Of a stretch of 64,000 nucleotides of DNA, positions 3,844-53,405 are shown in pieces. The DNA lies in the sequence record PZ583742.1; one strand, written 5' to 3'. The translations under genes and the position numbers were made by a program. This stretch comes from a phage. Numbering within the stretch: the first letter of the stretch is position 1; every line of letters begins with the position of its first letter. The notes below the pieces were generated by a model that saw only the letters and a list, made by a program, of their open reading frames with translations, was not told the origin of the DNA and made no database searches.

Positions 3844-4803
3844 ATGATGTTAGTTATTGGTTCTCGTGCATTACATAACGCTGGTCTGATTGAAAGTCAG
3901 AAAATTGAAAACTCTGATTGGGACTTCATCGCTGACCAGGTCTCATGGAACCACTTTAAAGCACGTATGTTCGGTGCTCATGTTCCTGTGGATAACCCTG
4001 ATGTCCAAGCTTTTAAATGTATGTACAATGGCAAAGAAACCTATTTTGAAGCTTATATTGTCCGTGCCCTGACCAACGTACGAGAAATTACTGGCGAGCT
4101 TCAAGACGAAGATTTCACCTCAAGTTATCGTCTCCTGAAATATGCTGAAAATCATATTAAAAAAGATCGTCTTACAGGTTTTTACTGGGCGACTCCTGAT
4201 ATTTGTCTGGCAATTAAATTGTCTCATCGTTACCTGAAGAACAATCCATTCTTCTTGAAGACCATGAGTCATATTAATTACCTTCGCAATAAGGGTGTTG
4301 TTCTTAATGATGAACTACAAAAAATCATGCTGCAACGTCAGGCAGAAACACTGTCATACAGTCACCCTAAACTAGACGTGGGCAAGAAAACTTTCTTTAA
4401 TGATACAATCTATACCCTTGACCATGACTCCATCCACGAGGCTGTGGCGCTTGCTGATAAGCCTGCATATAAGTTCTATATGAAGGATGATTCAGAAGTC
4501 ATGACCTCGCGTGAAAAATTTGAAGCGCTCCCTGATGTTATTAAACTGGCAGGGGTTTATGAAGAAGCATGTGTGCTCGCTCTGGAGCGTTCGCAGGTTC
4601 CTAATGAGTTCAATATCTCTCCATCTGTGAGCTTCCATATTGCGCTGGAAAAAGTCTGCACCTCCATTACTTCTGGATGGTTCCGTGCCTTCGCATATGA
4701 AAATTACGGCAAAATTATAAGTATGTATAATGCTTTAGGTCATGACGATTATATTAAACGTTTTAAGGCTAACCAACATTTAATTCGTCCTTTCACAAAA
4801 TAA
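3844..4803 (+). CDS. hypothetical protein (319 aa), no T4 counterpart recognised
   Basis: Long ORF with RBS TGAGGAAAA before ATG. Confidence 0.55.
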   Translation: MMLVIGSRALHNAGLIESQKIENSDWDFIADQVSWNHFKARMFGAHVPVDNPDVQAFKCMYNGKETYFEAYIVRALTNVREITGELQDEDFTSSYRLLKYAENHIKKDRLTGFYWATPDICLAIKLSHRYLKNNPFFLKTMSHINYLRNKGVVLNDELQKIMLQRQAETLSYSHPKLDVGKKTFFNDTIYTLDHDSIHEAVALADKPAYKFYMKDDSEVMTSREKFEALPDVIKLAGVYEEACVLALERSQVPNEFNISPSVSFHIALEKVCTSITSGWFRAFAYENYGKIISMYNALGHDDYIKRFKANQHLIRPFTK

Positions 4804-4862
4804 GTGTGTACATCCAAATGAGGCTATGACATAATGGTCCCACAATCAATGAGGAAAATATC

Positions 4863-5549
4863 ATGAATAGTTCTAAAGTGTTTAATAGCCGAGCTCGTGC
4901 CGTAAGTGGTTTTGCTCACGATGTTCAAAACGATCAAATCAAAAATGAACCGATGTTCTTTAACTGTGATTTGAGTTTTGCTTGGGATAAAGGCGGCCCA
5001 ATCACTCGTAGTTTTATTGCCAATCTTCCGATTGATTGGACTAATGAAAATGTCGTATTCGATTCTCGTGTACATATGTTAATGCCTGGTTGGTATCCTG
5101 CTATCCCTGGGTATCACCATGATGATGTACCGCGCCCGGATATTCCGGTTGGTCAACACTTTATTACTGCAGGGCAACCTGATTATGATAATCCTCGTTA
5201 CCATTCTGAACATATTCTCGGTCTTGTTAACGCTGATGTGTGTCCTACTTATTTTGCAACCGGAACTGCCCAATTTAGTCAGATTCCTGAAGGCGAACTT
5301 ATCTATCGCCAGTGGCATAAAGAAGTTCTGGAAAAAATTGAGTCCAATGAATTAACCAAGTGGGATGCTCCTGACCGCACGTTGCTCCAGTTTGATTGGC
5401 AGACATGGCATACAGGTTCTCGTGCAGTAAGTAACGGTTGGCGCTGGTTTGGTCGTGTGTCTCGTAATACCGACCGTGTTAAAAAGATTACAAATGAAAT
5501 CCGCGTTAATGCTCAAGTATATCTGGAATTCCCTATGGAGGGCTGGTAA
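4863..5549 (+). CDS. hypothetical protein (228 aa)
   Basis: Long ORF with RBS TGAGGAAAA; no recognised motif. Confidence 0.55.
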   Translation: MNSSKVFNSRARAVSGFAHDVQNDQIKNEPMFFNCDLSFAWDKGGPITRSFIANLPIDWTNENVVFDSRVHMLMPGWYPAIPGYHHDDVPRPDIPVGQHFITAGQPDYDNPRYHSEHILGLVNADVCPTYFATGTAQFSQIPEGELIYRQWHKEVLEKIESNELTKWDAPDRTLLQFDWQTWHTGSRAVSNGWRWFGRVSRNTDRVKKITNEIRVNAQVYLEFPMEGW

Positions 5550-25099: not shown

Positions 25100-25573
25100 A
25101 TGTTGTTGACTGGCAAATTATACAAAGAAGAAAAACAAAAACTTTATGATGCACAAGCTGGTAAGTGTCCAATTTGCCACCGTGATTTGGACTCTGATGT
25201 TCAGGCTAACCATCTTGACCATGACCACGAATTGAACGGACCAAAAGCCGGTAAGGTTCGCGGGTTACTATGCAATCTGTGCAATGGAACAGAAGGACAA
25301 ATGAAGCATAAGTTCAGCCGTTCGGGTCTAAAAAGTCGCGATGTTGACTACCTGGAATGGTTAGAGAGTTTGCTTGTCTATCTGAAATCTGATTATACCG
25401 AAAACAATATCCACCCTAATTTTGTAACAGACAAAGCCAAAGAGTTTGGTCGTCTGGGGAAAGAAGAAATGATTCGGGAAATGCTTTTGAATGGTATGAC
25501 TTATAATGAATCTGACACCAAAACACAATTAATGGCTTCATTTAAGAAGCAGCTTAGAAAGAGTTTAAAATGA
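25100..25573 (+). CDS. 49: endonuclease VII (Holliday junction resolvase)
   Basis: MLLTGKLYKEEKQK..GKCPICHRDL..HLDHDHELNGPKAGKVRGLLCNLCN..KKQLRKSLK is near-identical to T4 gp49. Confidence 0.95.
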   Translation: MLLTGKLYKEEKQKLYDAQAGKCPICHRDLDSDVQANHLDHDHELNGPKAGKVRGLLCNLCNGTEGQMKHKFSRSGLKSRDVDYLEWLESLLVYLKSDYTENNIHPNFVTDKAKEFGRLGKEEMIREMLLNGMTYNESDTKTQLMASFKKQLRKSLK

Positions 25574-27387
25574 CAATTGAAAACGAAATTGAAGGATTGA
25601 TTCATAAAACTAATAAAGACCTTTTAAACGAGAATGCTAATAAAGATTCTCGTGTTTTTCCAACTCAACGGGACCTTATGGCTGGTATTGTATCTAAACA
25701 CATTGCCAAAAATATGGTCGCGTCTTTTATTATGAAAGCACATGAAAGCGGAATTATTCATTTCCATGATATTGATTATTCCCCTGCTCTTCCATTTACT
25801 AATTGTTGTTTAGTAGATTTAAAAGGAATGCTTGAGAACGGGTTTAAGCTCGGTAACGCACAGATTGAAACTCCTAAATCAATCAGTGTTGCTACTGCAA
25901 TTATGGCACAAATTACTGCGCAGGTTGCTTCCCATCAATATGGCGGAACGACTTTTGCGAATGTGGATAAAGTACTTTCTCCTTATGTTAAACGTACCTA
26001 TGCGAAACATATTGAAGATGCAGAAAAATGGCAAATCACTGATGCATTGAATTATGCCCAATCTAAAACAGAAAAAGACGTATATGATGCATTCCAAGCT
26101 TATGAATATGAAGTAAATACTCTCTTTAGTTCAAACGGACAAACGCCTTTTGTGACAATTACATTTGGCACGGGAACTGACTGGACCGAACGAATGATTC
26201 AGAAAGCAATTCTGAAAAATCGTATTAAAGGTCTTGGTCGTGATGGGATAACTCCTATTTTCCCTAAACTTGTTATGTTTGTTGAAGAAGGTGTTAATCT
26301 TTATAAAGACGACCCGAACTATGATATTAAGCAGCTTGCTTTAGAGTGTGCAAGCAAAAGAATGTATCCTGACATCATTTCGGCTAAGAACAATAAAGCT
26401 ATCACCGGTTCATCTATTCCTGTTTCTCCAATGGGTTGCCGTAGTTTCTTGAGCGTATGGAAAGATTCGACTGGTAATGAAATTCTTGATGGACGTAATA
26501 ATCTTGGTGTTGTAACACTGAATCTTCCTCGCATTGCATTAGATTCTTATATTGGAACACAATTCAATGAACAGAAATTTGATGAATTATTCAATGAGCG
26601 AATGGATTTATGTTTTGAAGCTTTGATGTGTAGAATTAGTTCCTTAAAAGGAGTTAAAGCGACTGTTGCTCCTATTCTTTACCAAGAAGGTGCATTTGGG
26701 GTTCGTCTTAAACCTGATGACGATATAATTGAGTTATTTAAAAATGGCAGAAGTTCAGTGTCTTTAGGATACATCGGTATTCACGAATTGAATATTCTTG
26801 TCGGTCGTGATATTGGACAGGAAATTTTGACTAAAATGAATGCTCGTCTTAAGCAGTGGACCGAAAGAACCGGATTTGCTTTTAGCTTGTATTCTACTCC
26901 TGCTGAAAACCTGTGTTATCGCTTCTGTAAACTCGATGCCGAAAAATATGGAAGTGTAAAAGATGTTACCGATAAAGGCTGGTACACTAACAGTTTCCAC
27001 GTTTCAGTAGAAGAAAATATTACCCCGTTTGAAAAGATTTCTCGTGAAGCCCCATATCATTTCATTGCGACAGGTGGTCACATTTCTTATGTTGAACTTC
27101 CTGATATGAAAAATAACCTAAAAGGTCTTGAGGCTGCATGGGATTATGCTGCACAACATTTAGATTATTTTGGTGTTAATATGCCAGTAGATAAATGTTT
27201 TACGTGTGGAAGTACTCATGAAATGACTCCTACTGAAAACGGATTTGTTTGTTCCATTTGTGGAGAAACTGACCCTAAAAAGATGAACACAATAAGAAGA
27301 ACATGTGGCTATTTGGGAAATCCGAACGAACGCGGGTTTAATCTTGGCAAAAATAAAGAAATCATGCATAGGGTTAAACATCAATGA
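25570..27387 (+). CDS. nrdD: anaerobic ribonucleoside-triphosphate reductase (class III)
   Basis: 605 aa; C-terminal zinc site CFTCGS..CSICG and glycyl-radical motif RRTCGYLG; uninterrupted (no intron). Confidence 0.92.
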   Translation: MTIENEIEGLIHKTNKDLLNENANKDSRVFPTQRDLMAGIVSKHIAKNMVASFIMKAHESGIIHFHDIDYSPALPFTNCCLVDLKGMLENGFKLGNAQIETPKSISVATAIMAQITAQVASHQYGGTTFANVDKVLSPYVKRTYAKHIEDAEKWQITDALNYAQSKTEKDVYDAFQAYEYEVNTLFSSNGQTPFVTITFGTGTDWTERMIQKAILKNRIKGLGRDGITPIFPKLVMFVEEGVNLYKDDPNYDIKQLALECASKRMYPDIISAKNNKAITGSSIPVSPMGCRSFLSVWKDSTGNEILDGRNNLGVVTLNLPRIALDSYIGTQFNEQKFDELFNERMDLCFEALMCRISSLKGVKATVAPILYQEGAFGVRLKPDDDIIELFKNGRSSVSLGYIGIHELNILVGRDIGQEILTKMNARLKQWTERTGFAFSLYSTPAENLCYRFCKLDAEKYGSVKDVTDKGWYTNSFHVSVEENITPFEKISREAPYHFIATGGHISYVELPDMKNNLKGLEAAWDYAAQHLDYFGVNMPVDKCFTCGSTHEMTPTENGFVCSICGETDPKKMNTIRRTCGYLGNPNERGFNLGKNKEIMHRVKHQ

Positions 27388-27854
27388 ATTATGATAGAAT
27401 TTATCCTTGCGATTTTGTGAATGGCCCTGGTTGTAGGGTCGTTCTTTTCGTTACAGGTTGTTTGCATAAATGCGAAGGGTGTTATAATAAATCAACATGG
27501 AATGCTAGAAATGGCGTTCCATTCACTGGTGAAACACTAGAACAATTAATTGAATGTTTGAATAATGATTATATAGAAGGATTAACTATAACTGGAGGAG
27601 ACCCTCTCTATCCTGATAACCGAGATGTTATTCACTCTGTGGTTCAAACTATTAAAAATCTTTATCCCAATAAAAGCATTTGGATGTGGACAGGATATAA
27701 GTTTGAAGATATTAAACAACTAGAAATGCTTAAATATGTTGATGTTATTATTGATGGGAAGTATGAGAAAAATCTTCCGACCAAAAAACTGTGGCGAGGG
27801 TCAGATAATCAGCGACTTTGGTCAAATACCGATGGGGTGTGGAAACATGATTAA
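27384..27854 (+). CDS. nrdG: anaerobic RNR activating enzyme (radical SAM)
   Basis: N-terminal CDFVNGPGCRVVLFVTGCLHKCEGCYN radical-SAM cysteine cluster; start overlaps nrdD stop. Confidence 0.9.
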   Translation: MNYDRIYPCDFVNGPGCRVVLFVTGCLHKCEGCYNKSTWNARNGVPFTGETLEQLIECLNNDYIEGLTITGGDPLYPDNRDVIHSVVQTIKNLYPNKSIWMWTGYKFEDIKQLEMLKYVDVIIDGKYEKNLPTKKLWRGSDNQRLWSNTDGVWKHD

Positions 27855-30998: not shown

Positions 30999-31556
30999 AT
31001 GAACGAAATTAAATTAACCAAGAATAACTATGTAAATAATAAAGAGCTTTTGAAAGCTATTTCGGAGTGGAAACAGAAGCTGAATGCGAACACCGACCCG
31101 AACAAAATTATTCGCCAGAACGATGTTATTGGTCTGGCGATTATGCTTATAGCCGAAGGTCTTAGCAAACGTTTCAACTTCTCCGGATATACCCAATCCT
31201 GGAAGCAAGAAATGATAGCGGATGGAATTGAGGCCGCAATAAAAGGTCTTCACAACTTCGACGAAACAAAATACGATAATCCACATGCTTACATAACAAT
31301 GGCTTGCTTCAATGCTTTCGTTCAGCGTATCAAAAAAGAACGTAAAGAAATGGCAAAGAAATATAGCTACTTCGTCCATAACGTATATGATTCACGTGAC
31401 GACGATATGGTGGCTCTGGCTGATGAAACATTTATCCAGGACATCTATGACAAAATGACACAGTACGAATCCTCTTTAGTTAAAGCGCCAGGGTCTGATA
31501 AGAGCGCCAAAGATAAAGAAGGTGATTTGGATTTTTTATATGGAACATCAATTTGA
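30999..31556 (+). CDS. 55: late-transcription sigma factor gp55
   Basis: [101 protein letters not shown] is near-identical to T4 gp55. Confidence 0.95.
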
Positions 31557-31773
31557 TATTACCGATTTTTTAGATAAAATCGAGGAAGACTTTACTGCGC
31601 TCCCATATTTCATTAAACTTTATCTGCGAGACATAAAAGGTCTTCCAATTGATATCGACCCTTTAAACGTCCGGAATCTGGAATTTACTTCACCGGATAA
31701 TAACGTTGATTACCGTTATCATGTGGATAATGCTAATCTATATTTTACAATTGAGTTAACTCCCAAGGATTAA
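31540..31773 (+). CDS. hypothetical protein
   Basis: ATG 31540 overlapping end of gene 55. Confidence 0.35.
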
Positions 31774-31774
31774 T

Positions 31775-32086
31775 ATGCAAGCTCCAGATATTTCTCAACT
31801 GACCGATAAGCAGATTGAAGAAGCACAGGAACGTCTCGAAGAAGCGAACGCACTCGAAGCAACCAGTCAAGCAGCGAAGATTCTGAAAAAGAATGCTCGT
31901 GAAATTGCACGACTGAATAAGCATGCTCAAGGCGCAGTGCTGGAAAACAATTTTGAAGCATACAAATATGCTTTAGTTAAACTGCGTGGGATTTACCGCC
32001 AACCCGTTACGGAAGACCTGATTAAGTTGATGTGGGATTCTACTCGCAAACAAATTTGGGAAATCGTAAATGGCATTAGTAAATAA
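31775..32086 (+). CDS. hypothetical protein
   Basis: ORF-track ORF, helical/charged. Confidence 0.4.
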   Translation: MQAPDISQLTDKQIEEAQERLEEANALEATSQAAKILKKNAREIARLNKHAQGAVLENNFEAYKYALVKLRGIYRQPVTEDLIKLMWDSTRKQIWEIVNGISK

Positions 32087-32270
32087 ACCCTTTAAACGGC
32101 TTCTTATTGGAGCCGCTTTCAGACTTCGCTCATATGGTAATATCTGTATCAAACAGACCGAAACCGAATACAAAATGATGGGCCAATATTCTGATGGTAT
32201 TTTTAAGATTGAGCCTGTAGCCAAGGTTTGGGTCGATTCTCATCAACTTAAGAAATGGTGGCAACGATGA
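32070..32270 (+). CDS. hypothetical protein
   Basis: ORF-track ORF. Confidence 0.35.
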   Translation: MALVNKPFKRLLIGAAFRLRSYGNICIKQTETEYKMMGQYSDGIFKIEPVAKVWVDSHQLKKWWQR

Positions 32271-32328
32271 TAACATGGACAGGTGGCTAATGAACGACGA
32301 ACATCCAGATTTTTAAGAGGCTATATGA

Positions 32329-32502
32329 ATGACGAATTCGACGGATTTTGATAAGATTAAATCTGACAAAAATGAGATGATACTTCAATTTGAAGCCGCT
32401 CGCATTAAAGCAGAAAATGAAGGTACTATTACCTATAAGCCTATCAAGTTCAGGTCTTCTCATGAACCTCTGTATGGTGTATTAATTGAAAAGGAAGCCT
32501 AG
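32329..32502 (+). CDS. small hypothetical protein (57 aa)
   Basis: ORF ending inside terminator hairpin; below ORF-track size cutoff. Confidence 0.3.
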   Translation: MTNSTDFDKIKSDKNEMILQFEAARIKAENEGTITYKPIKFRSSHEPLYGVLIEKEA

Positions 32503-32515
32503 TGCTTCCTTTTTT
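32492..32515 (+). terminator. rho-independent terminator
   Basis: aggaagc-ctagt-gcttcct followed by TTTTT. Confidence 0.6.
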
Positions 32516-32539
32516 GCTTTATATTCGGGATGATAAAAT
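32513..32539 (+). promoter_or_regulatory. middle-promoter-like element (MotA box TTTGCTTTA plus TAAAAT) upstream of gene 47
   Basis: TTTGCTTTA 32513-32521, -10 TAAAAT 32534-32539; directly after terminator hairpin. Confidence 0.45.
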
Positions 32540-32559
32540 GAACCAACTGAGGAGAGTAT

Positions 32560-32703
32560 ATGGAATTATTTTTAGGATATGTCGTGCTATTCATGGCATT
32601 CTACACATTCACAAGAGCTTGTTGGATAGGATTCTTTTCTACTCCTGACGGGTTCATTTCAGTAATTTTATTTTGCATTGCGATAACGGTGCTTGGCTTA
32701 TGA
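32560..32703 (+). CDS. small membrane peptide (47 aa)
   Basis: RBS GGAGAG; hydrophobic; overlaps gene 47 start. Confidence 0.3.
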   Translation: MELFLGYVVLFMAFYTFTRACWIGFFSTPDGFISVILFCIAITVLGL

Positions 32704-33719
32704 AAATTTTAAATTTAGGTGATTGGCACTTAGGTGTCAAAGCTGACGACCCATGGGCTCAAAACATTCAACGCGATGGTATTTTACAGGCGATTGCATA
32801 TTCCAAAGCGAATGGGATTAAAGTCTGGATTCAATATGGGGATATTTTTGACGTCCGTAAGGCCGTAACGCATAAGACGATGGAATTCAGCCGTGAGATT
32901 ATGGAACTCCTTCGTGAAGCAGGAATTACTATGCACACGATAGTCGGGAACCATGACATGAATCTGAAGAATAAGATTCATCCTAATGCTATCACTGAAC
33001 TCCTGAATAAGTATGACCATGTTAAAATCTACGATAAGCCAACGACTGTTGATTTTGACGGTTGTCAGATTGATATGATTCCATGGATGTGTGACGAGAA
33101 CGCAACTGACATTCACCAACATATCAAAACTTCTGGGGCTGAATATTGCATCGGTCACTGGGAATTAACCGGGTTTTATTTCTATAAAGGATTGAAATCC
33201 CACGGACTTGAGCCTGATTTCCTTAAGAAGTACAAGCAAGTTTGGTCTGGTCACTTCCACACAATTTCAGAAGCTGCAAACGTTAAGTACATCGGGACAC
33301 CATGGACATTAACAGCAGGTGACGAGAACGACCCACGCGGGTTCTGGGAATTTGATACCGAAACCGAAGAGATGAAATTTATTCCGAATGAAACCACCTG
33401 GCATCGGAAGATTTTCTATCCAAACGAAACTATTAACTACGACGACTTCAAAGACTTATCAGTCCGTGTTATTGTAGAAAAAGTCGATAAAGACCTGACC
33501 AAGTTCGAATCTGAATTAGAAAAGCGTGTGCATGAATTGCGTGTTGTCAATAAGGTTGATAACAGTGTTGACACATCAGACTCTGATGAAGAGTTAGACA
33601 TAAAACGCTTAACAGATATGATGGCAGAATATATCGATGCATTACCTGACGCTAATGAGAAAGAATCAAAAGCTCTCAAAGCATTGGCCAATAAATTATA
33701 TCTTGAGGTGCAACCGTGA
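32700..33719 (+). CDS. 47: recombination endonuclease subunit gp47 (Mre11-like)
   Basis: MKILNLGDWHLGVKADDPW..IQYGDIFD..IVGNHD..GHFH phosphoesterase motifs; adjacent to gene 46 as in T4. Confidence 0.9.
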   Translation: MKILNLGDWHLGVKADDPWAQNIQRDGILQAIAYSKANGIKVWIQYGDIFDVRKAVTHKTMEFSREIMELLREAGITMHTIVGNHDMNLKNKIHPNAITELLNKYDHVKIYDKPTTVDFDGCQIDMIPWMCDENATDIHQHIKTSGAEYCIGHWELTGFYFYKGLKSHGLEPDFLKKYKQVWSGHFHTISEAANVKYIGTPWTLTAGDENDPRGFWEFDTETEEMKFIPNETTWHRKIFYPNETINYDDFKDLSVRVIVEKVDKDLTKFESELEKRVHELRVVNKVDNSVDTSDSDEELDIKRLTDMMAEYIDALPDANEKESKALKALANKLYLEVQP

Positions 33720-36101: not shown

Positions 36102-36509
36102 ATGAACAACGTAACTGCTAAAGATATCCAAGTTAAAACCATCCGCACCGACGCTAACCCACACAACCAAAACCGCATCCGCAAATCCTGGGTCCTGGCA
36201 TGTGATGAAGCATCTGCTGCCCGTCTGCAGTCTCTGCCGCAAGAAATTAAATTCATGCTGTACGGTGTGATTGATACTGATGTATCTGATAAGTGGATTG
36301 AACTGATGCGTAATCACTACAACGATTCACTGGCTGCTGGTGCTAAACTGGTTATCGACCGTGACGGTTCCGAACGTCTCGAAGATGATTACTGTGTTGA
36401 CTTCGACGACCACCTGGTCCAAGCTGGTTCTATTATTGCTGCGCAACTTCCAGAGTATATTGAATCTCTTCCGGAAGCTATCCGCAAACAAATGGCAGTT
36501 GTTGCGTGA
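36102..36509 (+). CDS. rpbA: RNA polymerase-binding protein RpbA
   Basis: 135 aa ORF between 46/45.2 and 45 as in T4; RBS AGAGAGAA. Confidence 0.6.
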   Translation: MNNVTAKDIQVKTIRTDANPHNQNRIRKSWVLACDEASAARLQSLPQEIKFMLYGVIDTDVSDKWIELMRNHYNDSLAAGAKLVIDRDGSERLEDDYCVDFDDHLVQAGSIIAAQLPEYIESLPEAIRKQMAVVA

Positions 36510-37393
36510 ATTTGATTTATAAAATAACCTTTATAACAAGGGAACAAAATAATGAATTCCCTTGTTATTATATTGGTTCAAAGGTTGATACGACATTTAA
36601 TGGCCAAAATATTCTCGATAAAAATAATAAAATTTATACAGGTTCTCCGAATTCAAAATATACTACGCTGTATAATGAATTAATTGATAGCGGTGACTAT
36701 ATTGTTACTATCATTGGGGAAACAAAACAGGACCCAAGGAAAATAGAAAATATTTTTCAAATGTCAGTTAAAGCTGTAACCAATGAGAAATACTTTAATA
36801 AAACGTATGCACACGACAAAAGCCGCTATGATGCTCCTGGATATGCTCCATACCGAAACTTGAAAACGGGTAAAGTTGTTAAATTACATCCATCTGAACT
36901 TACATCTGATTATGTTGGTGTTCGTAAAGATTGTTCAATTTCAGATAAGCACATTCAAGCAATTAAAGACTTCCAAAAAGAATATTGGACTGACGAAGCT
37001 CGACAAGCAAGGTCTGTTGAAGTCAAAAATCGTTATAAAGATGTTGAGTATGCTTTAAAATTCAAAGCTATAATGAATACATCTGAAGTATATGAAAAAT
37101 ATTTAAAATCAATTACTGAATATTGGAATAATTCAGATAATAGAATAAAGGCTTCAAAACGAGCAACCGAACGAAATGCCAACCCTGAATTTAAAGAAAA
37201 ATTTAGGAAATCTAAAGCAAGAGGAACCTGGTTACAGTATGAAGATGAACTTAAAGCATTGTGGAATGCTTTAGGCCAACCAGGGTATATTAAGTTTAGA
37301 AAACACGCCATTGAACATGGGTTTAATGATGAAAACTATCAGGGTGCAATCCGGTCCTGGTCAAATTATTATGTTAATAGGAAAATGAAATGA
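36506..37393 (+). CDS. GIY-YIG-like homing endonuclease (Seg-like), start uncertain
   Basis: From GTG 36506 the N-terminus is NLIYKITFITREQNNEFPCYYIGSK (GIY..YIG-like); basic C-terminal half; inserted between rpbA and 45, which are adjacent in T4; first in-frame ATG is far downstream. Confidence 0.5.
   Translation: MNLIYKITFITREQNNEFPCYYIGSKVDTTFNGQNILDKNNKIYTGSPNSKYTTLYNELIDSGDYIVTIIGETKQDPRKIENIFQMSVKAVTNEKYFNKTYAHDKSRYDAPGYAPYRNLKTGKVVKLHPSELTSDYVGVRKDCSISDKHIQAIKDFQKEYWTDEARQARSVEVKNRYKDVEYALKFKAIMNTSEVYEKYLKSITEYWNNSDNRIKASKRATERNANPEFKEKFRKSKARGTWLQYEDELKALWNALGQPGYIKFRKHAIEHGFNDENYQGAIRSWSNYYVNRKMK
36535..36566 (+). promoter_or_regulatory. perfect 10-bp inverted repeat (hairpin) inside the 5' end of the Seg-like ORF
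   Basis: aacaagggaa (36535-36544) / ttcccttgtt (36557-36566), 12-nt loop. Confidence 0.5.
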
Positions 37394-40362: not shown

Positions 40363-43077
40363 ATGCAAGAATTTTATTTAACTATCGAACAAATCGGTGA
40401 CAATCTGCTTGAACGATACATTGACAAGAACGGTCATGAACGTGTTCGTGAAATCCCTTATGCTCCATGCTTGTTTATGCACGCCCGGGAAGGCCAGGCT
40501 GCAAAGTATACAGACATCTATAATAAAGGTTGTGTGAAAAAAGAATTCGATTCCATGCGTGATGCATCCCAGTGGATGAAGCGAATGAATGACATGGGCC
40601 TCGAAGTTATGGGTATGGATGACTTTAAACTCGCATACTTGTCCGACCGTTACCCACACGAAATCAAATATGATTCAAGTAAAATCCGTGTTGCTAACTT
40701 CGATATCGAGGTGACATCTCCTGATGGGTTCCCTGAACCGTCTGAAGCACGTCACCCTATTGATGCCCTGACGCACTATGATTCGGTAGACGATAAATTC
40801 TATGTCTTTGACCTTTTGGGCTCACCATACGCCACTGTGGAGCAATGGTCTATTGATATTGCTGCTAAGCTGCAGGAAGACGGTGGTGATGAAGTCCCTG
40901 AAGAAATCCTGGAAAAAATTGTTTATATGGCTTTCGATTCAGAAGAAGAAATGCTCCAGCAGTATTTGGTATTCTGGAACGAGAAAACTCCGGTTATGTT
41001 AACCGGTTGGAACATCGAGAAGTTTGATATTCCATATATCTACAACCGTCTTAAAAATGTATTTGGTGAAGCTACGGCAAAACGTCTGAGCCCACATCGT
41101 CGTACAAAAGTTAAGGTCATTAACAACGGCTTTGGTGAAGAACAAGAAATCATTCAGATTCTGGGTATCTCTGTTCTGGATTATCTGGACCTGTATAAAA
41201 AGTTCAGCTTCACAAACCAACCGTCTTATTCGTTGGATTATGTTGCGGAATCTGAACTGGGTGTTGGTAAACTCCCGTATGATGGTCCGATTTCTAAACT
41301 GCGTGAATCAAATCACCAGCGGTATATTTCTTATAACATCATCGACGTTTATCGTGTTGTGCAGATTGACCGTAAGCGGCAGTTTATTAACCTGAGTCAG
41401 TCAATGGGTTATTACGCAAAAATGCAGATTCAGTCTGTATTCAGCCCAATCAAAACTTGGGATGCGATTATCTTTAACAGCCTGAAGACTCAAAACAAAG
41501 TCATTCCGGAAACCAAATCGCATGTTCGTCAATCGTTCCCTGGTGCATTTGTTAAGGAACCTATTCCGAACGCGTACAAATATGTGATGAGCTGTGACTT
41601 AACATCTCTGTATCCAAGCATCATCCGACAGATTAATATCAGTCCAGAAACGATTGCCGGTTCATTTGCCCCAGCGCCGATGTATGAATACATCGCAGGA
41701 ACTGCTGACCGTCCATCTGATACATTTAGTTGTGCTCCAAATGGTATGATGTATTTTAAAGATGTTGCGGGTATTATTCCGACAGAAGTCACCAAGGTGT
41801 TTAATCAGCGTAAAGAGCACAAAGGCTATATGCTTGCGGCTCAACGTAATGGTGAACTGATTAAGGAAGCTCTGCGTAATCCAGGAACTGGCACAACCGA
41901 ACCAGAAGTTGATTATCGTCATGACTTTGATGACAATATGAAAACGGCCCTGCATGGTCTGAATCAAACAGTCCTGAATGGTATGTTGTACAAAGCGCAG
42001 ATGGAAGAAGTTGCAGGCATGACCGCACAGATTAACCGTAAACTGCTTATCAACAGTTGTTATGGCGCTCTGGGCAATATCTGGTTCCGTTACTTTGACC
42101 TGCGAAATGCAACCGCGATTACATCTTTCGGACAACTTGCATTGCAGTGGATTGAGCGTAAAGTTAACGAATACTTCGATAGTGTCTGTGGGACAAGCGG
42201 CGAAACTTATGTGTTCTATGGCGATACTGACTCCATTTATATCCAGTGCGATAACCTGATTAAAAAGGTTGGTGGCGAATCTAAATTCCGTGATACAAAC
42301 CACCTGGTTGACTTCATGGACAAGTTTGCGAAAGACCGTCTGGAACCGGCAATCGATAAAGCTTTCCGTGAGCTGGCTGAATACATGAACAACAAACAGC
42401 ACCTTATGTTTATGGACCGTGAAGCGATTGCATGTCCTCCGCTGGGTTCTAAGGGTGTGGGTGGATTCTGGACGGCGAAGAAGCGTTATGCACTGAACGT
42501 GTACGATATGGAAGGCACACGATATGCTGTTCCGAAATTGAAAATCATGGGTCTGGAAACTCAAAAGTCGAGTACTCCAAAGGCATGTCAGAAAGCTCTG
42601 AAAGAATGTATCCGCCGTATGCTGCAAGAAGGTGAAGAATCTCTGCAGACATACTTCAAGGAATTCAATAAGGAATTTAATGAGCTTAACTACATGACCA
42701 TCGCAGGTGTATCATCGGTTAACAACATCCAGAAATATAATGAAGGCGGTTTCCCTGGATTTAAGTGCCCGGCTCATATCAAAGGTGTGCTTGCATATAT
42801 GCGTGCAACTAAAGGTCTGAAGACTGTTCCACAAATCATGGAAGGGGAAAAGGTGTATGTACTTCCTCTTAAAGTCGGTAACCCGTTTGGTGAAACCGTG
42901 ATTGCATGGCCATCTGGGATTGAACTCCCGATTGAAATCCGTGACCAGGTTCTGCAGTGGATGGACTACAACATACTGTTCCAGAAGACTTTTGTTAAGC
43001 CATTAACAGGTTTCTCTGAAGCTGCAAAGGTTGATTACGAAAAGAAAGCAACTCTTTTTGATATGTTTGACTTTTAA
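40363..43077 (+). CDS. 43: DNA polymerase gp43 (family B)
   Basis: 904 aa; N-terminal EFY..IE..G.N..ERYID.NG.ER.RE; exo motifs VANFDIEVT, YNIIDV; polymerase motifs SLYPSII, KLLINSCYGALG, YGDTDS. Confidence 0.97.
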   Translation: MQEFYLTIEQIGDNLLERYIDKNGHERVREIPYAPCLFMHAREGQAAKYTDIYNKGCVKKEFDSMRDASQWMKRMNDMGLEVMGMDDFKLAYLSDRYPHEIKYDSSKIRVANFDIEVTSPDGFPEPSEARHPIDALTHYDSVDDKFYVFDLLGSPYATVEQWSIDIAAKLQEDGGDEVPEEILEKIVYMAFDSEEEMLQQYLVFWNEKTPVMLTGWNIEKFDIPYIYNRLKNVFGEATAKRLSPHRRTKVKVINNGFGEEQEIIQILGISVLDYLDLYKKFSFTNQPSYSLDYVAESELGVGKLPYDGPISKLRESNHQRYISYNIIDVYRVVQIDRKRQFINLSQSMGYYAKMQIQSVFSPIKTWDAIIFNSLKTQNKVIPETKSHVRQSFPGAFVKEPIPNAYKYVMSCDLTSLYPSIIRQINISPETIAGSFAPAPMYEYIAGTADRPSDTFSCAPNGMMYFKDVAGIIPTEVTKVFNQRKEHKGYMLAAQRNGELIKEALRNPGTGTTEPEVDYRHDFDDNMKTALHGLNQTVLNGMLYKAQMEEVAGMTAQINRKLLINSCYGALGNIWFRYFDLRNATAITSFGQLALQWIERKVNEYFDSVCGTSGETYVFYGDTDSIYIQCDNLIKKVGGESKFRDTNHLVDFMDKFAKDRLEPAIDKAFRELAEYMNNKQHLMFMDREAIACPPLGSKGVGGFWTAKKRYALNVYDMEGTRYAVPKLKIMGLETQKSSTPKACQKALKECIRRMLQEGEESLQTYFKEFNKEFNELNYMTIAGVSSVNNIQKYNEGGFPGFKCPAHIKGVLAYMRATKGLKTVPQIMEGEKVYVLPLKVGNPFGETVIAWPSGIELPIEIRDQVLQWMDYNILFQKTFVKPLTGFSEAAKVDYEKKATLFDMFDF

Positions 43078-43146
43078 GTGTTTACAACGGCAATGGATTG
43101 CCGTATGATTACCTCATCAACTGATGAATAACTTAAGGATATTAAA

Positions 43147-43389
43147 ATGGAAACATTAATTGCGGGTACTGTTGTTCTTGGTGCGGGTTCTTTCTTCCTG
43201 GCTGCACTGGCATATTTTCTGCCGTGGATTATCGCGCTGCTGCGTGGTACCAAAAGTAATTGTGGAATCTTCTTTGTTAACCTCCTGTTAGGTTGGACAA
43301 TGGTCGGATGGTTTATTGCATTTATCTGGGCACTCGTTGCTGAACGTAAATCAAACGCACAAGTAATTATCATCAAGGAAGCAAAATGA
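43147..43389 (+). CDS. imm: Imm-like small membrane protein
   Basis: 80 aa, two TM helices; immediately downstream of gene 43 as T4 imm. Confidence 0.5.
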   Translation: METLIAGTVVLGAGSFFLAALAYFLPWIIALLRGTKSNCGIFFVNLLLGWTMVGWFIAFIWALVAERKSNAQVIIIKEAK

Positions 43390-43529
43390 AGATAATTACA
43401 ATTATTGTACTGATTGCATTTTTTAGTATGTCAATCTATTGGGCAATAATGACTCCGCATATGATTCCAACTTTAATTTTGGGTTGGGTATTTTTGGGGC
43501 TCCAAGCCCGCTATGAATGTTTTAATTGA
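43386..43529 (+). CDS. small membrane peptide (47 aa)
   Basis: ATG overlaps upstream stop; hydrophobic. Confidence 0.3.
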   Translation: MKIITIIVLIAFFSMSIYWAIMTPHMIPTLILGWVFLGLQARYECFN

Positions 43530-43539
43530 GGAAAATACA

Positions 43540-44043
43540 ATGAAAAAGTTAGCTATCGCAGCTGTTATGCTGCTATCTGGTTGTGCTTACCAGGGTGATG
43601 TTGTTAATGCCAACGAGATTGGTAAAGCGCGAATTGCTGCAGACCGTCAGGTGCATAATGGTTCCTTTGATTTCAAAGGCGGTACTGGACTTATCTACAA
43701 ACGCGACAACAATCAATGTGGAAACAACTGCGCGAAATATGCTCAACAAGAAATTGAGTACAAACGCGAGCAAGCTGCGAAGCATGACGAAATCATTGCC
43801 AAGCTGGAAGCAGAAACTAAGCGACAAAATGACCTGGATACTGTTAACCAGATTTCACAGGTCTGCATGTCATATATCAATATGCAGATAAACATCATGC
43901 GCGCAGAAGCTTATCAGGCAGCGGAGACGGGTTCTCCAAAAGCTAATGAGTACCGCGATATGTATCAGCGTTCTGCTCAAAACCGTCTGAGCTATATTAA
44001 TAAATGTGTGGCTAAAGAGAAAGCACGCCAAGGTATTAACTGA
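43540..44043 (+). CDS. lipoprotein with coiled-coil region
   Basis: ATG 43540 after GAGGAAAA; signal peptide plus lipobox MKKLAIAAVMLLSGC; occupies the T4 42/beta-gt slot. Confidence 0.6.
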   Translation: MKKLAIAAVMLLSGCAYQGDVVNANEIGKARIAADRQVHNGSFDFKGGTGLIYKRDNNQCGNNCAKYAQQEIEYKREQAAKHDEIIAKLEAETKRQNDLDTVNQISQVCMSYINMQINIMRAEAYQAAETGSPKANEYRDMYQRSAQNRLSYINKCVAKEKARQGIN

Positions 44044-44150
44044 TGTTATTATTACTTCTGATTGTTGTAACAGTAATTGGTTTGTTGCTATTAGAAAAGC
44101 GTAATAAGCATTTGAATGAAGAAAACTGGAAACGTGGTAACGTTTACTAA
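44043..44150 (+). CDS. small membrane peptide (35 aa)
   Basis: ATG overlaps lipoprotein stop (TGATG); hydrophobic N-terminus. Confidence 0.25.
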   Translation: MLLLLLIVVTVIGLLLLEKRNKHLNEENWKRGNVY

Positions 44151-44177
44151 ATTGCTCTGAACTGCGAGAAGAATATT

Positions 44178-44306
44178 ATGATTGGTATGTTATTGATTAG
44201 CCTATGGCTGTTGTCTGCATTTGGTATTGGGTTTATGTACTGGTGGGACAAACGTCAGACCCGGAAGATTGTTGAACGTGCAATTAATCGTGGATTCAAT
44301 CGTTAA
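44178..44306 (+). CDS. small membrane peptide (42 aa)
   Basis: ATG 44178; TM segment LLISLWLLSAFGIGFMYWW. Confidence 0.3.
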   Translation: MIGMLLISLWLLSAFGIGFMYWWDKRQTRKIVERAINRGFNR

Positions 44307-44385
44307 TTGCTCTAAAAATACAGTGATATAATTATCCTATCTTAAACCTGTGAGAAAAATATAATGGTGCCTATGGAAAAAATGA

Positions 44386-45564
44386 ATGTCTATTGCAGAT
44401 TTGAAATCCCGTTTGATTAAAGCTTCTACATCCAAAATGACCGCGACTCTTACCAAGTCCAAGTTTTTTAATGATAAAGATGTAGTTCGTACAAAAATCC
44501 CGATGCTGAACATTGCAATCAGCGGTGCACTAGATGGTGGTATGCAGTCAGGTTTGACTATTTTTGCTGGTCCGTCAAAACACTTTAAATCCAATATGGG
44601 TTTAACGATGGTCTCTGCATATATGAACAAATACCCCGATGCAATCTGTTTGTTCTATGATTCAGAATTTGGTATCACAGAAGCCTATCTTCGTGCAATG
44701 AAAGTTGACCCGGAACGTGTTATCCACACACCAATCCAGTCGGTTGAACAATTGAAAGTTGATATGGTTAACCAGCTTGAAGCAATTGAGCGTGGTGAAA
44801 AAGTCATTATCTTTATTGACTCAATCGGTAACATGGCATCGAAAAAAGAAACAGAAGATGCGATGAACGAAAAAGTCGTTGGCGATATGACTCGTGCTAA
44901 ATCCCTGAAATCTCTGTTCCGTATTGTTACCCCGTATTTTAGTATCAAGGATATTCCTTGTGTCGCGGTTAACCATACAATCGAGACGATTGAGATGTAT
45001 AGCAAAACCGTTATGACCGGTGGCACAGGTGTTATGTATTCCGCGGACACCGTATTCATTATCGGCAAACGTCAGATTAAAGAAACTGGTAAAGAACTTG
45101 AAGGCTTCCAATTTGTTCTGAACGCCGAAAAATCTCGTATGGTCAAAGAGAAAAGTAAATTCTTCATTGATGTAAAATTCGATGGCGGTATTGACCCGTA
45201 TTCTGGCCTGCTTGATATGGCAATGGAAATCGGATTTGTGGTGAAACCAAAAGTTGGTTGGTATAACCGTGAATATCTTGATGTTGAGACCGGTGAAATG
45301 GTCCGCGAAGAAAAATCATGGCGCGCAAAAGATACTAACTGCACCGAATTCTGGGGCCCATTGTTCAAACACGAACCTTTCCGTGACGCAATCAAACGCC
45401 ATTACCAACTGGGTGCAATCGATAGCAATGCTGTTGTTGATGCCGAAGTTGATGCGCTTATTGCCTCCAAGGTTGAAAAATACACTGCTCCTGAAGGTAA
45501 GACAAAACCGTCTGCTGCAGATATTGAAAACGATTTAGATATGATGGAAGACCTTGATGAATGA
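44386..45564 (+). CDS. uvsX: recombinase UvsX (RecA-like)
   Basis: DLKSRLIKASTSK.TA.LT.SKFFN.KDVVRTKIPM.NIA.SG..GGMQSGL..AGPSK.FKSN.GLTMVS.YM..YPDA.CLFYDSEFGIT is near-identical to T4 UvsX. Confidence 0.96.
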   Translation: MSIADLKSRLIKASTSKMTATLTKSKFFNDKDVVRTKIPMLNIAISGALDGGMQSGLTIFAGPSKHFKSNMGLTMVSAYMNKYPDAICLFYDSEFGITEAYLRAMKVDPERVIHTPIQSVEQLKVDMVNQLEAIERGEKVIIFIDSIGNMASKKETEDAMNEKVVGDMTRAKSLKSLFRIVTPYFSIKDIPCVAVNHTIETIEMYSKTVMTGGTGVMYSADTVFIIGKRQIKETGKELEGFQFVLNAEKSRMVKEKSKFFIDVKFDGGIDPYSGLLDMAMEIGFVVKPKVGWYNREYLDVETGEMVREEKSWRAKDTNCTEFWGPLFKHEPFRDAIKRHYQLGAIDSNAVVDAEVDALIASKVEKYTAPEGKTKPSAADIENDLDMMEDLDE

Positions 45565-50627: not shown

Positions 50628-51656
50628 ATGTCATATATTGATAAAGAATTTGCAGTCAGAGCTTTATCGTATCAACCACGTTATAGAGAAGTCACCGGGA
50701 GCACATTTAAAGCAAACTGTCGTTGCAAGGTTTGTGGGGACTCCCAGAAAGATTCACACAAGGCTCGATTCTGGGCGTATACTAATCCGACTGATGGCGC
50801 GGTTTACGTGAAATGTTTTAACTGTGACTACTCCACGCATATAAGCAAATACATAAAAGAGTTTGAGCCGGATTTACACCGGGAATATATGGTTGAGAAG
50901 TATAAGGAGAATGCATTTGGGCGACAACGCACTGAAGTTGCAGAAGCTCCGAAAGAACCAGAAAAAACTCCGGTTATTGAGCAGCTTGCTTTTTGTGAAA
51001 GACTCGATACTTTACCAGAAGCACATCCGATAATTAAGTATGTAAAAAGTCGGTGTATTCCGAGCAATGTTTGGAACCGGTTATGGTTTACAAACAAATG
51101 GCCTGCATTAGTTAACTCCGTTAATCCTGGGACGTATAAGAATGAAACGAATGAACCACGCTTGGTTATTCCTATCTTCAACGGCAAAAAAGAAATCGAA
51201 TCTTTCCAAGGACGAGCTCTTCGCAAAGATGCACCACAAAAATATATCACAATCAAAGCTCACCCAGAAGCTTCCAAAGTCTATGGCGTAGACAAGATTG
51301 ATGAGCGTAAACGCGTATGGGTAATGGAAGGTCCAATTGATAGTTTGTTTATCCCTAACAGCATTGCGATAACCGGTGGAACATTAGCATTGGAAGCTGT
51401 TCCTTACCCAGAAACCAGAGTATGGGTGATGGATTCAGAAGCAAGACATCCTGATACGATTAAACGTATGAAGAAATTAGTCGATGCAGGAGAAGCTGTT
51501 ATGTTCTGGGACAACGCACCGTGGCATACGAAAGATATAAATGAAATGATTAAATCGGAAGGAGCAACGCCTGAGCAAATTGAAGCCTATATGAATGATA
51601 ATATTGCACAAGGTTTAATGGCAAAACTTCGATTATCCAAATATGCAAAAATATGA
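50628..51656 (+). CDS. 61: DNA primase gp61
   Basis: N-terminal zinc ribbon CRCKVCGDS..x..CFNCDYS; TOPRIM-like VWVMEGPIDSLF; size and neighbourhood as T4 gp61. Confidence 0.9.
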   Translation: MSYIDKEFAVRALSYQPRYREVTGSTFKANCRCKVCGDSQKDSHKARFWAYTNPTDGAVYVKCFNCDYSTHISKYIKEFEPDLHREYMVEKYKENAFGRQRTEVAEAPKEPEKTPVIEQLAFCERLDTLPEAHPIIKYVKSRCIPSNVWNRLWFTNKWPALVNSVNPGTYKNETNEPRLVIPIFNGKKEIESFQGRALRKDAPQKYITIKAHPEASKVYGVDKIDERKRVWVMEGPIDSLFIPNSIAITGGTLALEAVPYPETRVWVMDSEARHPDTIKRMKKLVDAGEAVMFWDNAPWHTKDINEMIKSEGATPEQIEAYMNDNIAQGLMAKLRLSKYAKI

Positions 51657-52420
51657 ATTATCTAAAATTATATAATAAATTAATAGACAAAGGCCTCGCA
51701 AGGGGCCTAAACAAAAAGAATATCCCATTTTATACGGAGTCCCATCATATACTACCAAGGTGTTTGGGTGGACCTGACACCGAAGATAATTTGGTATTGT
51801 TATCAGCAAGAGAACATTTTATTGCACATTTGTTACTTTTTAAAATTTATCGACTTTCTAAATTAATGTTTGCTATACACCGGATGTGCGGTGACAAATT
51901 TGATAGCGCAAAATATGAATGGATGCGAAAAGAACATAGTAAAGCCGTTAGTGAACATATGTCAAACTTATGGAGTCAATCCGAGTTTAAAGACAAAATG
52001 TTAATTGCTTTACACAAGCGACATAACGACCACCCTGTGTCTGATAAAACCAAAAGTAAAATAGCTAACTCATTAAAATTGTATTATCAAAATAATCCAG
52101 TTACTGATGAACAACGGCAAAAGAATCGCGATGCACAAATGAGAAGATTTAAAGAAAATCCGCAAACCGAAGAAACGAAAAAGTTGCGGCGAGAAGCATG
52201 CCGAAAGGCAACTGGAACACCGGTTTGTAGATGCGATGAATTTGGTAATATACTTGAAAAGTATAATTCGGGAGCTGAGGCAAAGGAATTATTACAATTG
52301 GCGGGCAATACTCAAAATATATACACAGCTTGTAAAAGAAATAAAAAGACAGGCCGAATGTATAGGTCAAACGGCCATTTTTGGAAGTATCAAGACGAGG
52401 AAGGGATTCCGGTAAAGTAA
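51653..52420 (+). CDS. HNH homing endonuclease (Mob-like)
   Basis: HNH motif ESHHILPRCLGGPDTEDNLVLLSAREHFIAH; start overlaps gene 61 stop (ATGA); basic repeat-containing C-terminal half. Confidence 0.75.
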   Translation: MNYLKLYNKLIDKGLARGLNKKNIPFYTESHHILPRCLGGPDTEDNLVLLSAREHFIAHLLLFKIYRLSKLMFAIHRMCGDKFDSAKYEWMRKEHSKAVSEHMSNLWSQSEFKDKMLIALHKRHNDHPVSDKTKSKIANSLKLYYQNNPVTDEQRQKNRDAQMRRFKENPQTEETKKLRREACRKATGTPVCRCDEFGNILEKYNSGAEAKELLQLAGNTQNIYTACKRNKKTGRMYRSNGHFWKYQDEEGIPVK

Positions 52421-52886: not shown

Positions 52887-53405
52887 ATGGCTCATTTTAA
52901 TGAATGTTCTCAACTGATTGCTGGTGTTGATAAAGCTCAGGGCGCTTATGATAATGCAATTTTTGAAGGCACTGACCCACTGCAAGTTATGCTTGATATG
53001 CAGAAATCATTGCAGGTTCGTCTGGCTAAAGAAAAACCAGAATATAACGAACATCCTGATAACCTGGCGACTGCTGGTGAAGTTGTTACCTGGCTCCGCA
53101 ACCAGAAAGATTATATTGATGATGAATTCCGTGAACTGATTACTGCATTAGGTGGCATGTCCAATGGCGAGAAAGCTGCCTCGGCCGTATGGAAACCATG
53201 GAAAGCACAACATGGCGAAATGCAGCAAACCCTGATTAATGATTTATCTCCTGAAGACCAGCTCGAAATTAAATTTGAGATGATTGATATCCTGCACTTT
53301 GTCCTGAACATGTTCCACGGTCTTGGACTGACTGCAGAAGAAATCTTTAAATTGTATTATCTGAAAAATGCCGAAAACTTTGCTCGTCAAGACCGAGGTT
53401 ATTAA
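52887..53405 (+). CDS. 56: dCTPase/dUTPase gp56
   Basis: MAHFNEC..L..GVDKAQ; DPLQVMLDMQ; IDDEFRELI; SPEDQLEIKFE..D..HFVLNMF.GLG..AEEIFKLYYLKN.ENFARQDRGY is near-identical to T4 gp56. Confidence 0.93.
   Translation: MAHFNECSQLIAGVDKAQGAYDNAIFEGTDPLQVMLDMQKSLQVRLAKEKPEYNEHPDNLATAGEVVTWLRNQKDYIDDEFRELITALGGMSNGEKAASAVWKPWKAQHGEMQQTLINDLSPEDQLEIKFEMIDILHFVLNMFHGLGLTAEEIFKLYYLKNAENFARQDRGY

Follow-up and report, generated by a model that had tools for sequence, protein, structure and literature searches.

The T4-like phage represented by the 64,000-nucleotide stretch analysed here (record PZ583742.1; hereafter the window) has no dCMP hydroxymethylase gene (gene 42) and no glucosyltransferase gene in the interval between gene 43 and uvsX (positions 43,078–44,385), and it retains the dCTPase gene 56. 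Complete genomes of its relatives lack these modification genes as well, and their resident thymidylate synthase (TS; gene td, protein Td) carries Asp at the position where canonical TS has Asn177. We consider it likely that this Asp-type Td does the job of gene 42 and that 5-methylcytosine (5mC) replaces cytosine in the phage DNA. Judged from the genes, the most likely form of this is complete substitution of the kind seen in phage XP12. That gene 42 is missing and gene 56 kept was already known, as was TS-type dCMP methylation with 5mC, from XP12 and Pseudomonas phage PaMx74; the assignment of such methylation to T-even phages and to an Asp-type td is probably new. No report of 5mC or of an Asp-type Td in T4-like phages was found in the open-access literature; an earlier description in subscription journals is possible.

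Nucleotide identity and gene order placed the window in Gaprivervirus, the VR7/SP18 group of T-even phages, as DNA of a T4-like coliphage. Every long open reading frame (ORF) was on the + strand, and the order matched the T4 early region. Over the 7-kb stretch from gene 43 to gene 41, identity to the Gapriverviruses VR7, VR20, VR26, SP18, RZ and phage 212 was 94.7–98.1% (97.7% with 100% query coverage for phage 212). VR7 is classified in Straboviridae, Tevenvirinae, Gaprivervirus. The window covers 64 kb of about 170 kb, with roughly 107 kb beyond it, and genome-wide statements rest on two complete Gaprivervirus genomes, VR7 and phage 212 (PQ765507.1). Phage JS98, from the sister genus Dhakavirus, was used together with T4 for comparison.

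The interval from the end of gene 43 (position 43077) to the start of uvsX (44386) spans 1,308 bases and held five small + strand ORFs, none longer than 176 amino acids (aa); they are listed here with the flanking genes:

40363..43077, + strand: gene 43 (DNA polymerase), the upstream boundary; a 904-aa ORF in synteny with its counterparts in VR7 and phage 212.
43147..43389, + strand: imm (superinfection immunity membrane protein), 80 aa; 52% identity to T4 Imm; phrog_1039, E=1.9e-30.
43386..43529, + strand: gp42.1-like membrane ORF (JS98 orf44-like), 47 aa; phrog_3610, E=7.6e-27; 56% identity to JS98 orf44.
43540..44043, + strand: predicted lipoprotein (homologue of VR7ORF049c and JS98 orf43), 167 aa; 52% identity to JS98 orf43; phrog_1754.
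44043..44150, + strand: ORF of 35 aa with a single hydrophobic helix; no family match; annotated in both phage 212 and RZ.
44178..44306, + strand: ORF of 42 aa with a single hydrophobic helix; no family match; also called in several contigs of independent origin.
44044..44385, no strand: site at which relatives have their cytosine-modification module, by comparison with T4 and JS98; the site is down to 342 bp in the window.
44386..45564, + strand: uvsX (recombinase), the downstream boundary; a 392-aa ORF with RecA_N and T4_UVSX_C domains.

Identical copies of the gp42.1-like ORF in other contigs matched PF26865 (Phage_T4_Y02C). The N-terminus of the predicted lipoprotein, MKKLAIAAVMLLSGC, contains a lipobox (LLSGC); the protein had no Pfam match and is not a DNA-modification enzyme. 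Since the order imm, 42.1, lipoprotein, uvsX recurred in eight independent assemblies, the locus is not an assembly artefact.

The counterpart locus of T4 reads imm, gene 42, beta-gt, segA, uvsX. That of JS98 reads 43, imm, orf44, orf43 (the lipoprotein), a five-gene block (orf42 to orf38) and uvsX; orf39 within the block encodes a TS homologue with 24.5% identity to gp42. Searches with JS98 orf38–42 (tblastn) gave no match in the window, VR7 or phage 212. All three keep the flanking genes without any of the five block genes, which makes the locus an empty site of a cytosine-modification module. A dCMP hydroxymethylase and a glycosyltransferase are missing because the whole module between imm and uvsX is absent.

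The second canonical site for glucosyltransferase, between genes 55 (30999–31556) and 47 (about 32700–33719), is described below together with gene 56:

31557..32699, + strand: interval between genes 55 and 47, with the small ORFs a-gt.5, a-gt.4, a-gt.3, a-gt.2 and a 47.1-like ORF; no alpha-gt.
52887..53405, + strand: gene 56, dCTPase/dUTPase (MazG-like NTP pyrophosphohydrolase), 172 aa, intact; 68% identity to T4 gp56.

T4 carries a-gt and mobB in this interval; in the window the largest ORF there had 103 aa, and the ORFs were syntenic with a-gt.5 to a-gt.2 of VR7 and with phage 212. Gene 56 matched the Pfam families dUTPase_2 and PRA-PH and phrog_173. With T4 gp42, beta-gt, alpha-gt and Dam as queries, tblastn against the window reached only E=0.5 at best. 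A TS-family hidden Markov model (HMM), applied to all ORFs of the window taken from stop to stop, gave a best E of 6.9 and no TS-fold gene; as a positive control, the same model recovered the divergent gp42-like gene of JS98 at 2.5e-64. The original prediction, made from the letters of the window, that it holds no ORF of gp42 size or with TS motifs, no ORF of glucosyltransferase size in either interval, and an intact, conserved gene 56 was borne out on each count by these searches and ORF sizes.

The complete VR7 and phage 212 genomes also lacked gp42, beta-gt and alpha-gt by tblastn and the TS-family HMM, and dam was not found in either. Their sole TS-fold ORF was td (E about 1e-140). Annotation and tblastn showed that both carry 56, alc, denA, denB, ndd, cd, gene 1, frd and td; alc, denA and denB lie beyond the window and were scored in these two genomes. 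As only 64 kb of about 170 kb are visible, a gene 42 and glycosyltransferases could in principle sit in the remaining 107 kb of this phage and give glycosylated 5-hydroxymethylcytosine (hmC) as in T4. We regard this as extremely improbable, given that VR7 and phage 212, with 94.7–97.7% nucleotide identity across 43–41, have none, that two published genome surveys report the genus to be without an hmC enzyme, and that VR7 DNA is unglycosylated according to the paper on the bacteriophage exclusion (BREX) system. The finding named beforehand as the one that would overturn the absence, gene 42 and glucosyltransferases elsewhere in the genome, was thus looked for in the two relatives and not seen. 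The accompanying suggestion of modification genes at another place, possibly with another chemistry, held in spirit, in that td, a gene beyond the window, has an Asn177-to-Asp switch in the relatives; it did not hold for gene 42 or a glycosyltransferase, neither of which occurs anywhere in the two complete genomes.

The td gene is located about 100 kb from the 43–uvsX locus, with frd directly upstream. In the active-site region, VR7 and phage 212 Td read VDVFLGLPFDIGSYG, and JS98 Td and Escherichia coli ThyA read DVFLGLPFNIASYA; the motif is GLPFDIGSY in VR7 and phage 212, as opposed to GLPFNIASY in JS98 Td, T4 Td (PDB 1TIS) and E. coli ThyA. The best PDB match of Gaprivervirus Td was T4 TS (1TIS), with an end-to-end alignment that sets Asp opposite Asn. 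Across 28 positions with catalytic, dUMP-binding or folate-binding roles, the Gaprivervirus enzyme differed from JS98 Td only by N177D and A179G (E. coli numbering). The conserved positions included L143, D169, the catalytic C146, Y94, E58, W80, R21, R126/127, H207, Y209 and the C-terminal tail, which gives the alignment signature L143/D169/D177. Control sequences in the alignment returned the expected codes, D143/D169/D177 for T4 gp42 and E143/N169/D177 for JS98 orf39. The Asp codon was GAC in VR7 and GAT in phage 212, a synonymous difference. In the phage 212 record (PQ765507.1), product names are off by one gene at about 60–72 kb: the td ORF (286 aa) bears the name 'dihydrofolate reductase' and the nrdA ORF (751 aa) the name 'thymidylate synthase'.

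Among the best 120 Td clusters from a large protein database, Asp occupied position 177 in all four Gaprivervirus-type clusters (79 member sequences, 85–98% identity to VR7 Td), which take in SP18 and Yersinia phage P8. Asn stood at this position in every other T-even Td cluster open to scoring (115/115). Every Gaprivervirus Td examined therefore departs from canonical ThyA/Td, which is marked by Asn177. In the phage collection, the Gaprivervirus Td group comprised 33 records at ≥80% identity, followed by a gap and then the others at about ≤70%. Asp-type and Asn-type T-even Tds shared 63–70% identity, as against a minimum of 71% and a median of 88% within the Asn-type. Thirty-four otherwise invariant Td positions differed in Gapriverviruses, including 149, 177, 179 and 182. 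Referenced to T4, the divergence specific to the VR7 lineage was −27 points for DenB, −21 for Td, −17 for MotA and −13 for Frd; by this sequence comparison Td underwent lineage-specific acceleration. An additional proposal, that gp1 and Alc are unusually diverged owing to a new base, was dropped, as with T4 as the second reference their divergence was not Gaprivervirus-specific; DenB, Td and Frd alone stood out in that comparison.

Other T4 relatives named as lacking gp42 are Acinetobacter phages 133 and ZZ1 and Morganella phage MP1 (PMC8056088), and their Tds were checked as blind tests of the association between Asp177 and gp42 loss. The motifs were KPFDIASY in 133, MPFDIASY in ZZ1 and LNFDLIQAY in MP1, with Asp177, L143 and D169 in all three. 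Asp177 was thus present in 4/4 gp42-less T4 lineages (Gaprivervirus, 133, ZZ1 and MP1). The Td of the control, Acinetobacter phage KARL-1 (Lazarusvirus, reported to have its own 5-hydroxy-dCMP synthase), had Asn. Across the phage collection, tblastn with T4 gp42 was uninformative for Acinetobacter phages, whose gp42-like enzymes are too divergent. In the Td tree, 133 and ZZ1 grouped with KARL-1, with which they have insertions in common; Gaprivervirus Td has the T-even insertions. The tree and the shared insertions and deletions indicate that the Asn-to-Asp switch arose at least twice independently.

The chemistry expected of such an enzyme follows from a published residue code. Asn177 in E. 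coli TS (Asn229 in Lactobacillus casei) sets the pyrimidine specificity; N177D abolishes the normal dUMP preference, and N177D or N229D turns TS into a dCMP methylase. When Asp177 TS homologues were tested in vivo with T4 gp1 as the kinase, 5-methyl-deoxycytidine (5mdC) was obtained from five of the seven tested and additionally from the XP12 enzyme, and T4 gp1 was reported to handle 5mdCMP (bioRxiv 10.1101/2024.12.05.627091). According to a 2026 study, the bulky Leu143 keeps water out and leads to a methyl product, Asp or Glu at 143 leads to a hydroxymethyl product and D169N to 5-hydroxy-dCMP, with E143/N169/D177 as the signature of the 5-hydroxy-dCMP synthases of arabinosylating phages. Under this code, the L143/D169/D177 signature predicts 5-methyl-dCMP as the product of Gaprivervirus Td. 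Gaprivervirus Td showed the features of the XP12 type, namely Asp177, seen in VR7, phage 212 and the four Td clusters, the predicted methyl-directing L143 and D169, and the hydride-transfer and folate residues. The position of frd next to td fits a dihydrofolate-producing reaction.

In the pathway we propose, gp56 would hydrolyse dCTP and dCDP to dCMP and so remove dCTP. Td(Asp) would methylate dCMP to 5-methyl-dCMP with methylene-tetrahydrofolate, and Frd would recycle the dihydrofolate. The deoxynucleoside monophosphate kinase gp1, together with host nucleoside diphosphate kinase, would convert 5-methyl-dCMP to 5-methyl-dCTP, which gp43 would put into DNA, leaving 5mC in place of cytosine. 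Alc, DenA and DenB would then act solely on cytosine-containing host DNA and spare the methylated phage genome; Alc is reportedly blocked by CpG methylation. Sources of dTMP may be deamination of 5-methyl-dC nucleotides by Cd, host ThyA, salvage by Tk or a residual dUMP activity of Td; XP12-type phages provide a precedent for thymidine nucleotides made from 5-methyl-dC nucleotides. The candidate supporting enzymes gp1, Frd and Cd are encoded in both complete genomes.

That the cytosine of these phages is modified at all has published support. Nikulin et al. described Gapriverviruses as having Alc, DenB and dCTPase yet no enzyme for a non-canonical base, so that the puzzle was already in print, and the two genome surveys that found the whole genus without an hmC enzyme suggested 'an unknown protein'. 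In the BREX paper, restriction digests with and without T4 beta-glucosyltransferase led to the description of VR5 and T4 as glycosylated, T4147 as hydroxymethylated and VR7 as having 'modified cytosines'; VR7 DNA was unglycosylated, and VR7 was fully blocked by BREX, as was unglycosylated T4. In that text the wording for VR7 differs from the wording for the hmC control, T4147. The Yersinia Gaprivervirus paper did not mention DNA modification. The description of VR7 as modified and unglycosylated makes an unmodified-cytosine reading unlikely.

An ordinary cytosine genome, in which gp56 would be kept chiefly for a dUTPase role and the missing gene 42 and glycosyltransferases would reflect unmodified DNA, would place the Gapriverviruses with the RB49- and RB43-type phages. 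The absence of those genes is compatible with it, as is the fact that unmodified T4-like phages keep DenA and dCTPase/dUTPase homologues. However, these unmodified relatives (Krischvirus/Pseudotevenvirus) have no gp42, alc or denB (published survey, Table 4), and the Gapriverviruses depart from that pattern in having both alc and denB. An ordinary cytosine genome would further be at odds with the modified cytosines indicated for VR7 by restriction analysis, and would leave unexplained both the Asp177 Td and its coincidence with gp42 loss in every one of four lineages. We judge it very unlikely. The original prediction had listed it as one option, which is not supported in view of alc, denA, denB, ndd and 56 in the near-identical relatives and of the VR7 digests.

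Several observations weigh against a genome of plain 5mC made by Td(Asp). Gaprivervirus Td keeps Gln165 and His147, as a dUMP-specific TS does, and position 165 is Met or Leu in the other dCMP-specific homologues examined (gp42, JS98 orf39, 133, ZZ1 and MET13-T1); this suggests an enzyme that may be less specialised, or that may act on dUMP as well as dCMP. E. coli McrBC, McrA and Mrr would be expected to attack a genome with 5mC throughout, and tblastn found no homologue of T4 Arn (anti-McrBC) or IPI in the VR7 and 212 genomes, yet a K-12 strain is the recorded host of at least one Gaprivervirus. The BREX paper describes the VR7 base in no more detail than 'modified cytosines'. TS homologues with unexpected chemistry exist, such as RB69 gp48, which makes 5-hydroxy-dCMP. 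Finally, td is outside the window and the Asp allele was seen in relatives, so that for this phage the allele is inferred from membership of the genus.

Some of these points would be accommodated if Td(Asp) acted on dCMP and the final base were not plain 5mC, either through a different C5 group or through further sugar-free modification by an uncharacterised phage protein. The known 5-hydroxy-dCMP synthases and the many early ORFs of no known function leave room for this, the modification is unnamed in the BREX paper, and the lack of a known anti-McrBC protein would then matter less. Opposed to it are the residues L143, D169 and D177 in a TS active site that is unaltered elsewhere, which indicate methyl transfer, the adjacent frd, which fits dihydrofolate production, and a comparative screen that yielded no Gaprivervirus-specific transferase, oxygenase or methyltransferase. 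We hold such a base to be unlikely. A related version, in which the Td product of the Gapriverviruses, and independently of 133, ZZ1 and MP1, becomes an undescribed non-glycosylated cytosine derivative, or in which Td installs an unexpected C5 group, would also explain survival of McrBC and McrA without Arn or IPI; it appears unlikely too, by a shade more.

A further reading leaves Td as a thymidylate synthase with an incidental Asp and has an enzyme outside the TS family make the modified cytosine. The 'unknown protein' of the two published analyses is in keeping with it, and so are the normal-TS residues Gln165 and His147. Yet the comparison of VR7 and phage 212 with JS98 and T4, a noisy screen for genes found in the former pair and missing from the latter, gave no Gaprivervirus-specific enzyme-like gene. 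Pfam and PHROG scans of about 30 mid-sized unknown ORFs, among them nrdC.4/5/6/11, motB.1, 30.2 and a DUF7275/7277 protein, detected no TS, methyltransferase or glycosyltransferase. Two annotated candidates were considered and rejected:

VR7ORF147c: L002 17137–17562 (VR7) and L010 35656–36081 (phage 212), just upstream of the window; identical in VR7 and phage 212.
VR7ORF135c: L006 4186–4836 (phage 212) and L002 12684–13334 (VR7); 216 aa, 99% identity between VR7 and phage 212.

VR7ORF147c, called 'cytidine/deoxycytidylate deaminase-like', has no H/CxE or PCxxC deaminase motif and no Pfam match; it is a small helical paralogue of the adjoining ORF, the two having the C-terminal motif ARRA.ID..V...QSYASNFRK in common. 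VR7ORF135c, called 'restriction endonuclease', had no Pfam match and is not a genus-wide factor, as it is missing from window positions 4803–4863, between the DUF7277/DUF7275 gene (3844–4803) and the ORF134c homologue (4863–5549). An incidental Asp is also hard to square with the invariant Asn177 of the 115 other T-even clusters, its replacement by Asp in all four gp42-less lineages and the known loss of dUMP preference in N177D. We therefore consider a non-TS enzyme improbable, and methylation of dCMP by Td(Asp) remains our preferred reading.

The closest known systems are XP12 and PaMx74, which have complete 5mC. Like the Gapriverviruses, they have a single folate-dependent TS-fold enzyme with Asp at the N177 position that is shown or predicted to make 5-methyl-dCMP, a deoxynucleoside monophosphate kinase as the next step of the pathway, and a deaminase of the dCMP family, which in the Gapriverviruses may likewise provide thymidine nucleotides. 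Unlike them, the XP12 group consists of siphoviruses unrelated to T4, with TS homologues only about 30% identical to Gaprivervirus Td. In Gapriverviruses the role would fall to the T-even phage's own Td, switched at essentially one active-site residue and with Gln165/His147 kept, and it stands in a T4 background with gp56, Alc, DenA and DenB. The 5mC substitution is established in XP12, whereas in Gapriverviruses it is predicted from the genes. The same change has been engineered in the laboratory: E. coli N177D and L. casei N229D TS carry the same substitution, with the substrate changed from dUMP to dCMP and 5-methyl-dCMP as the product. In contrast to those mutants, the Gaprivervirus change is natural, fixed in the clade and accompanied by A179G, A182G, F149L and about 30 others. 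A separate TS-like gene with Asp at the N177 position was seen in Xanthomonas phage MET13-T1, a Bosavirus siphophage, where it is contiguous with genes for a dCMP deaminase and a dihydrofolate reductase (L017 2968–4858); by its sequence this cluster looks like an XP12-type 5mC module annotated as an ordinary thymidylate synthase.

With the glucosyl-hmC system of T4, the Gapriverviruses share the genome architecture and gp56, gp1, Cd, Alc, DenA, DenB and Ndd, as well as, by prediction, modification of dCMP by a TS-fold enzyme whose specificity residue is Asp. They differ in having no gp42 (the D143/D169/D177 hydroxymethylase), glucosyltransferases, or Arn or IPI homologue, and in a predicted product that is methyl rather than hydroxymethyl and carries no sugar. 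Of the arabinosyl-5-hydroxycytosine phages RB69, JS98 and Acinetobacter phage DLP3, JS98 resembles them in the flanking genes 43, imm, orf44, lipoprotein and uvsX. RB69 and JS98 are distinguished by the five-gene block of arabinosyl-5-hydroxycytosine type between imm and uvsX, absent from the window, VR7 and phage 212, and JS98 orf39 has N169, as opposed to the Asp169 of the sole Gaprivervirus TS-fold gene. JS98 orf39 itself (L011 22959–23657) is annotated 'hypothetical protein' and is a TS homologue with E143/N169/D177; given this 5-hydroxy-dCMP synthase signature, the JS98 base is probably arabinosyl-5-hydroxycytosine and not hmC.

The window also differed from its relatives in other genes. 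Between rpbA and gene 45, a 295-aa ORF (36506–37393, + strand) is absent at that place from VR7 and phage 212; its N-terminal 100 residues matched the homing-endonuclease family phrog_7504 (E=3.9e-14), and it had no Pfam match. A 255-aa HNH-type homing endonuclease (51653–52420, + strand; phrog_655, E=6e-45) lies between gene 61 (primase) and 56, in the position of T4 dam, where VR7 and phage 212 have only a small opposite-strand ORF; an identical protein was seen solely in short metagenome contigs. The anaerobic ribonucleotide reductase and its activase, nrdD (605 aa) and nrdG (156 aa), are encoded at 25570–27854 (+ strand) and are also present in phage 212. The low-temperature phage VR7 lacks both and has nothing but a 41-aa ORF between gene 49 and 55.8. 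In the 43–uvsX interval, two sequences resembling T4 middle promoters were located at about 44150–44180, before the 42-aa ORF, and at about 44308–44340, before uvsX (both + strand). Each consists of a MotA-box-like AATTGCTCT followed about 12–13 bp on by a −10-like element (TATTAT or TATAAT); they were read by eye, as the sigma-70 scan has no model for such promoters.

The Asn177-to-Asp Td offers a concrete answer to the question left open by the two genome surveys. If it is correct, complete 5mC would join glucosyl-hmC and arabinosyl-5-hydroxycytosine among the DNA chemistries of T-even phages, and a phage would be able to change the chemistry of its DNA by turning the thymidylate synthase it already has to a new use through essentially one active-site change. 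The thymidylate supply would be rewired, and the annotation 'thymidylate synthase' would need correcting in dozens of genomes. The modification bears on the choice of sequencing and restriction methods for Gapriverviruses, and on predictions of susceptibility to BREX, type IV restriction and CRISPR and of the transduction frequency of therapeutic phages.

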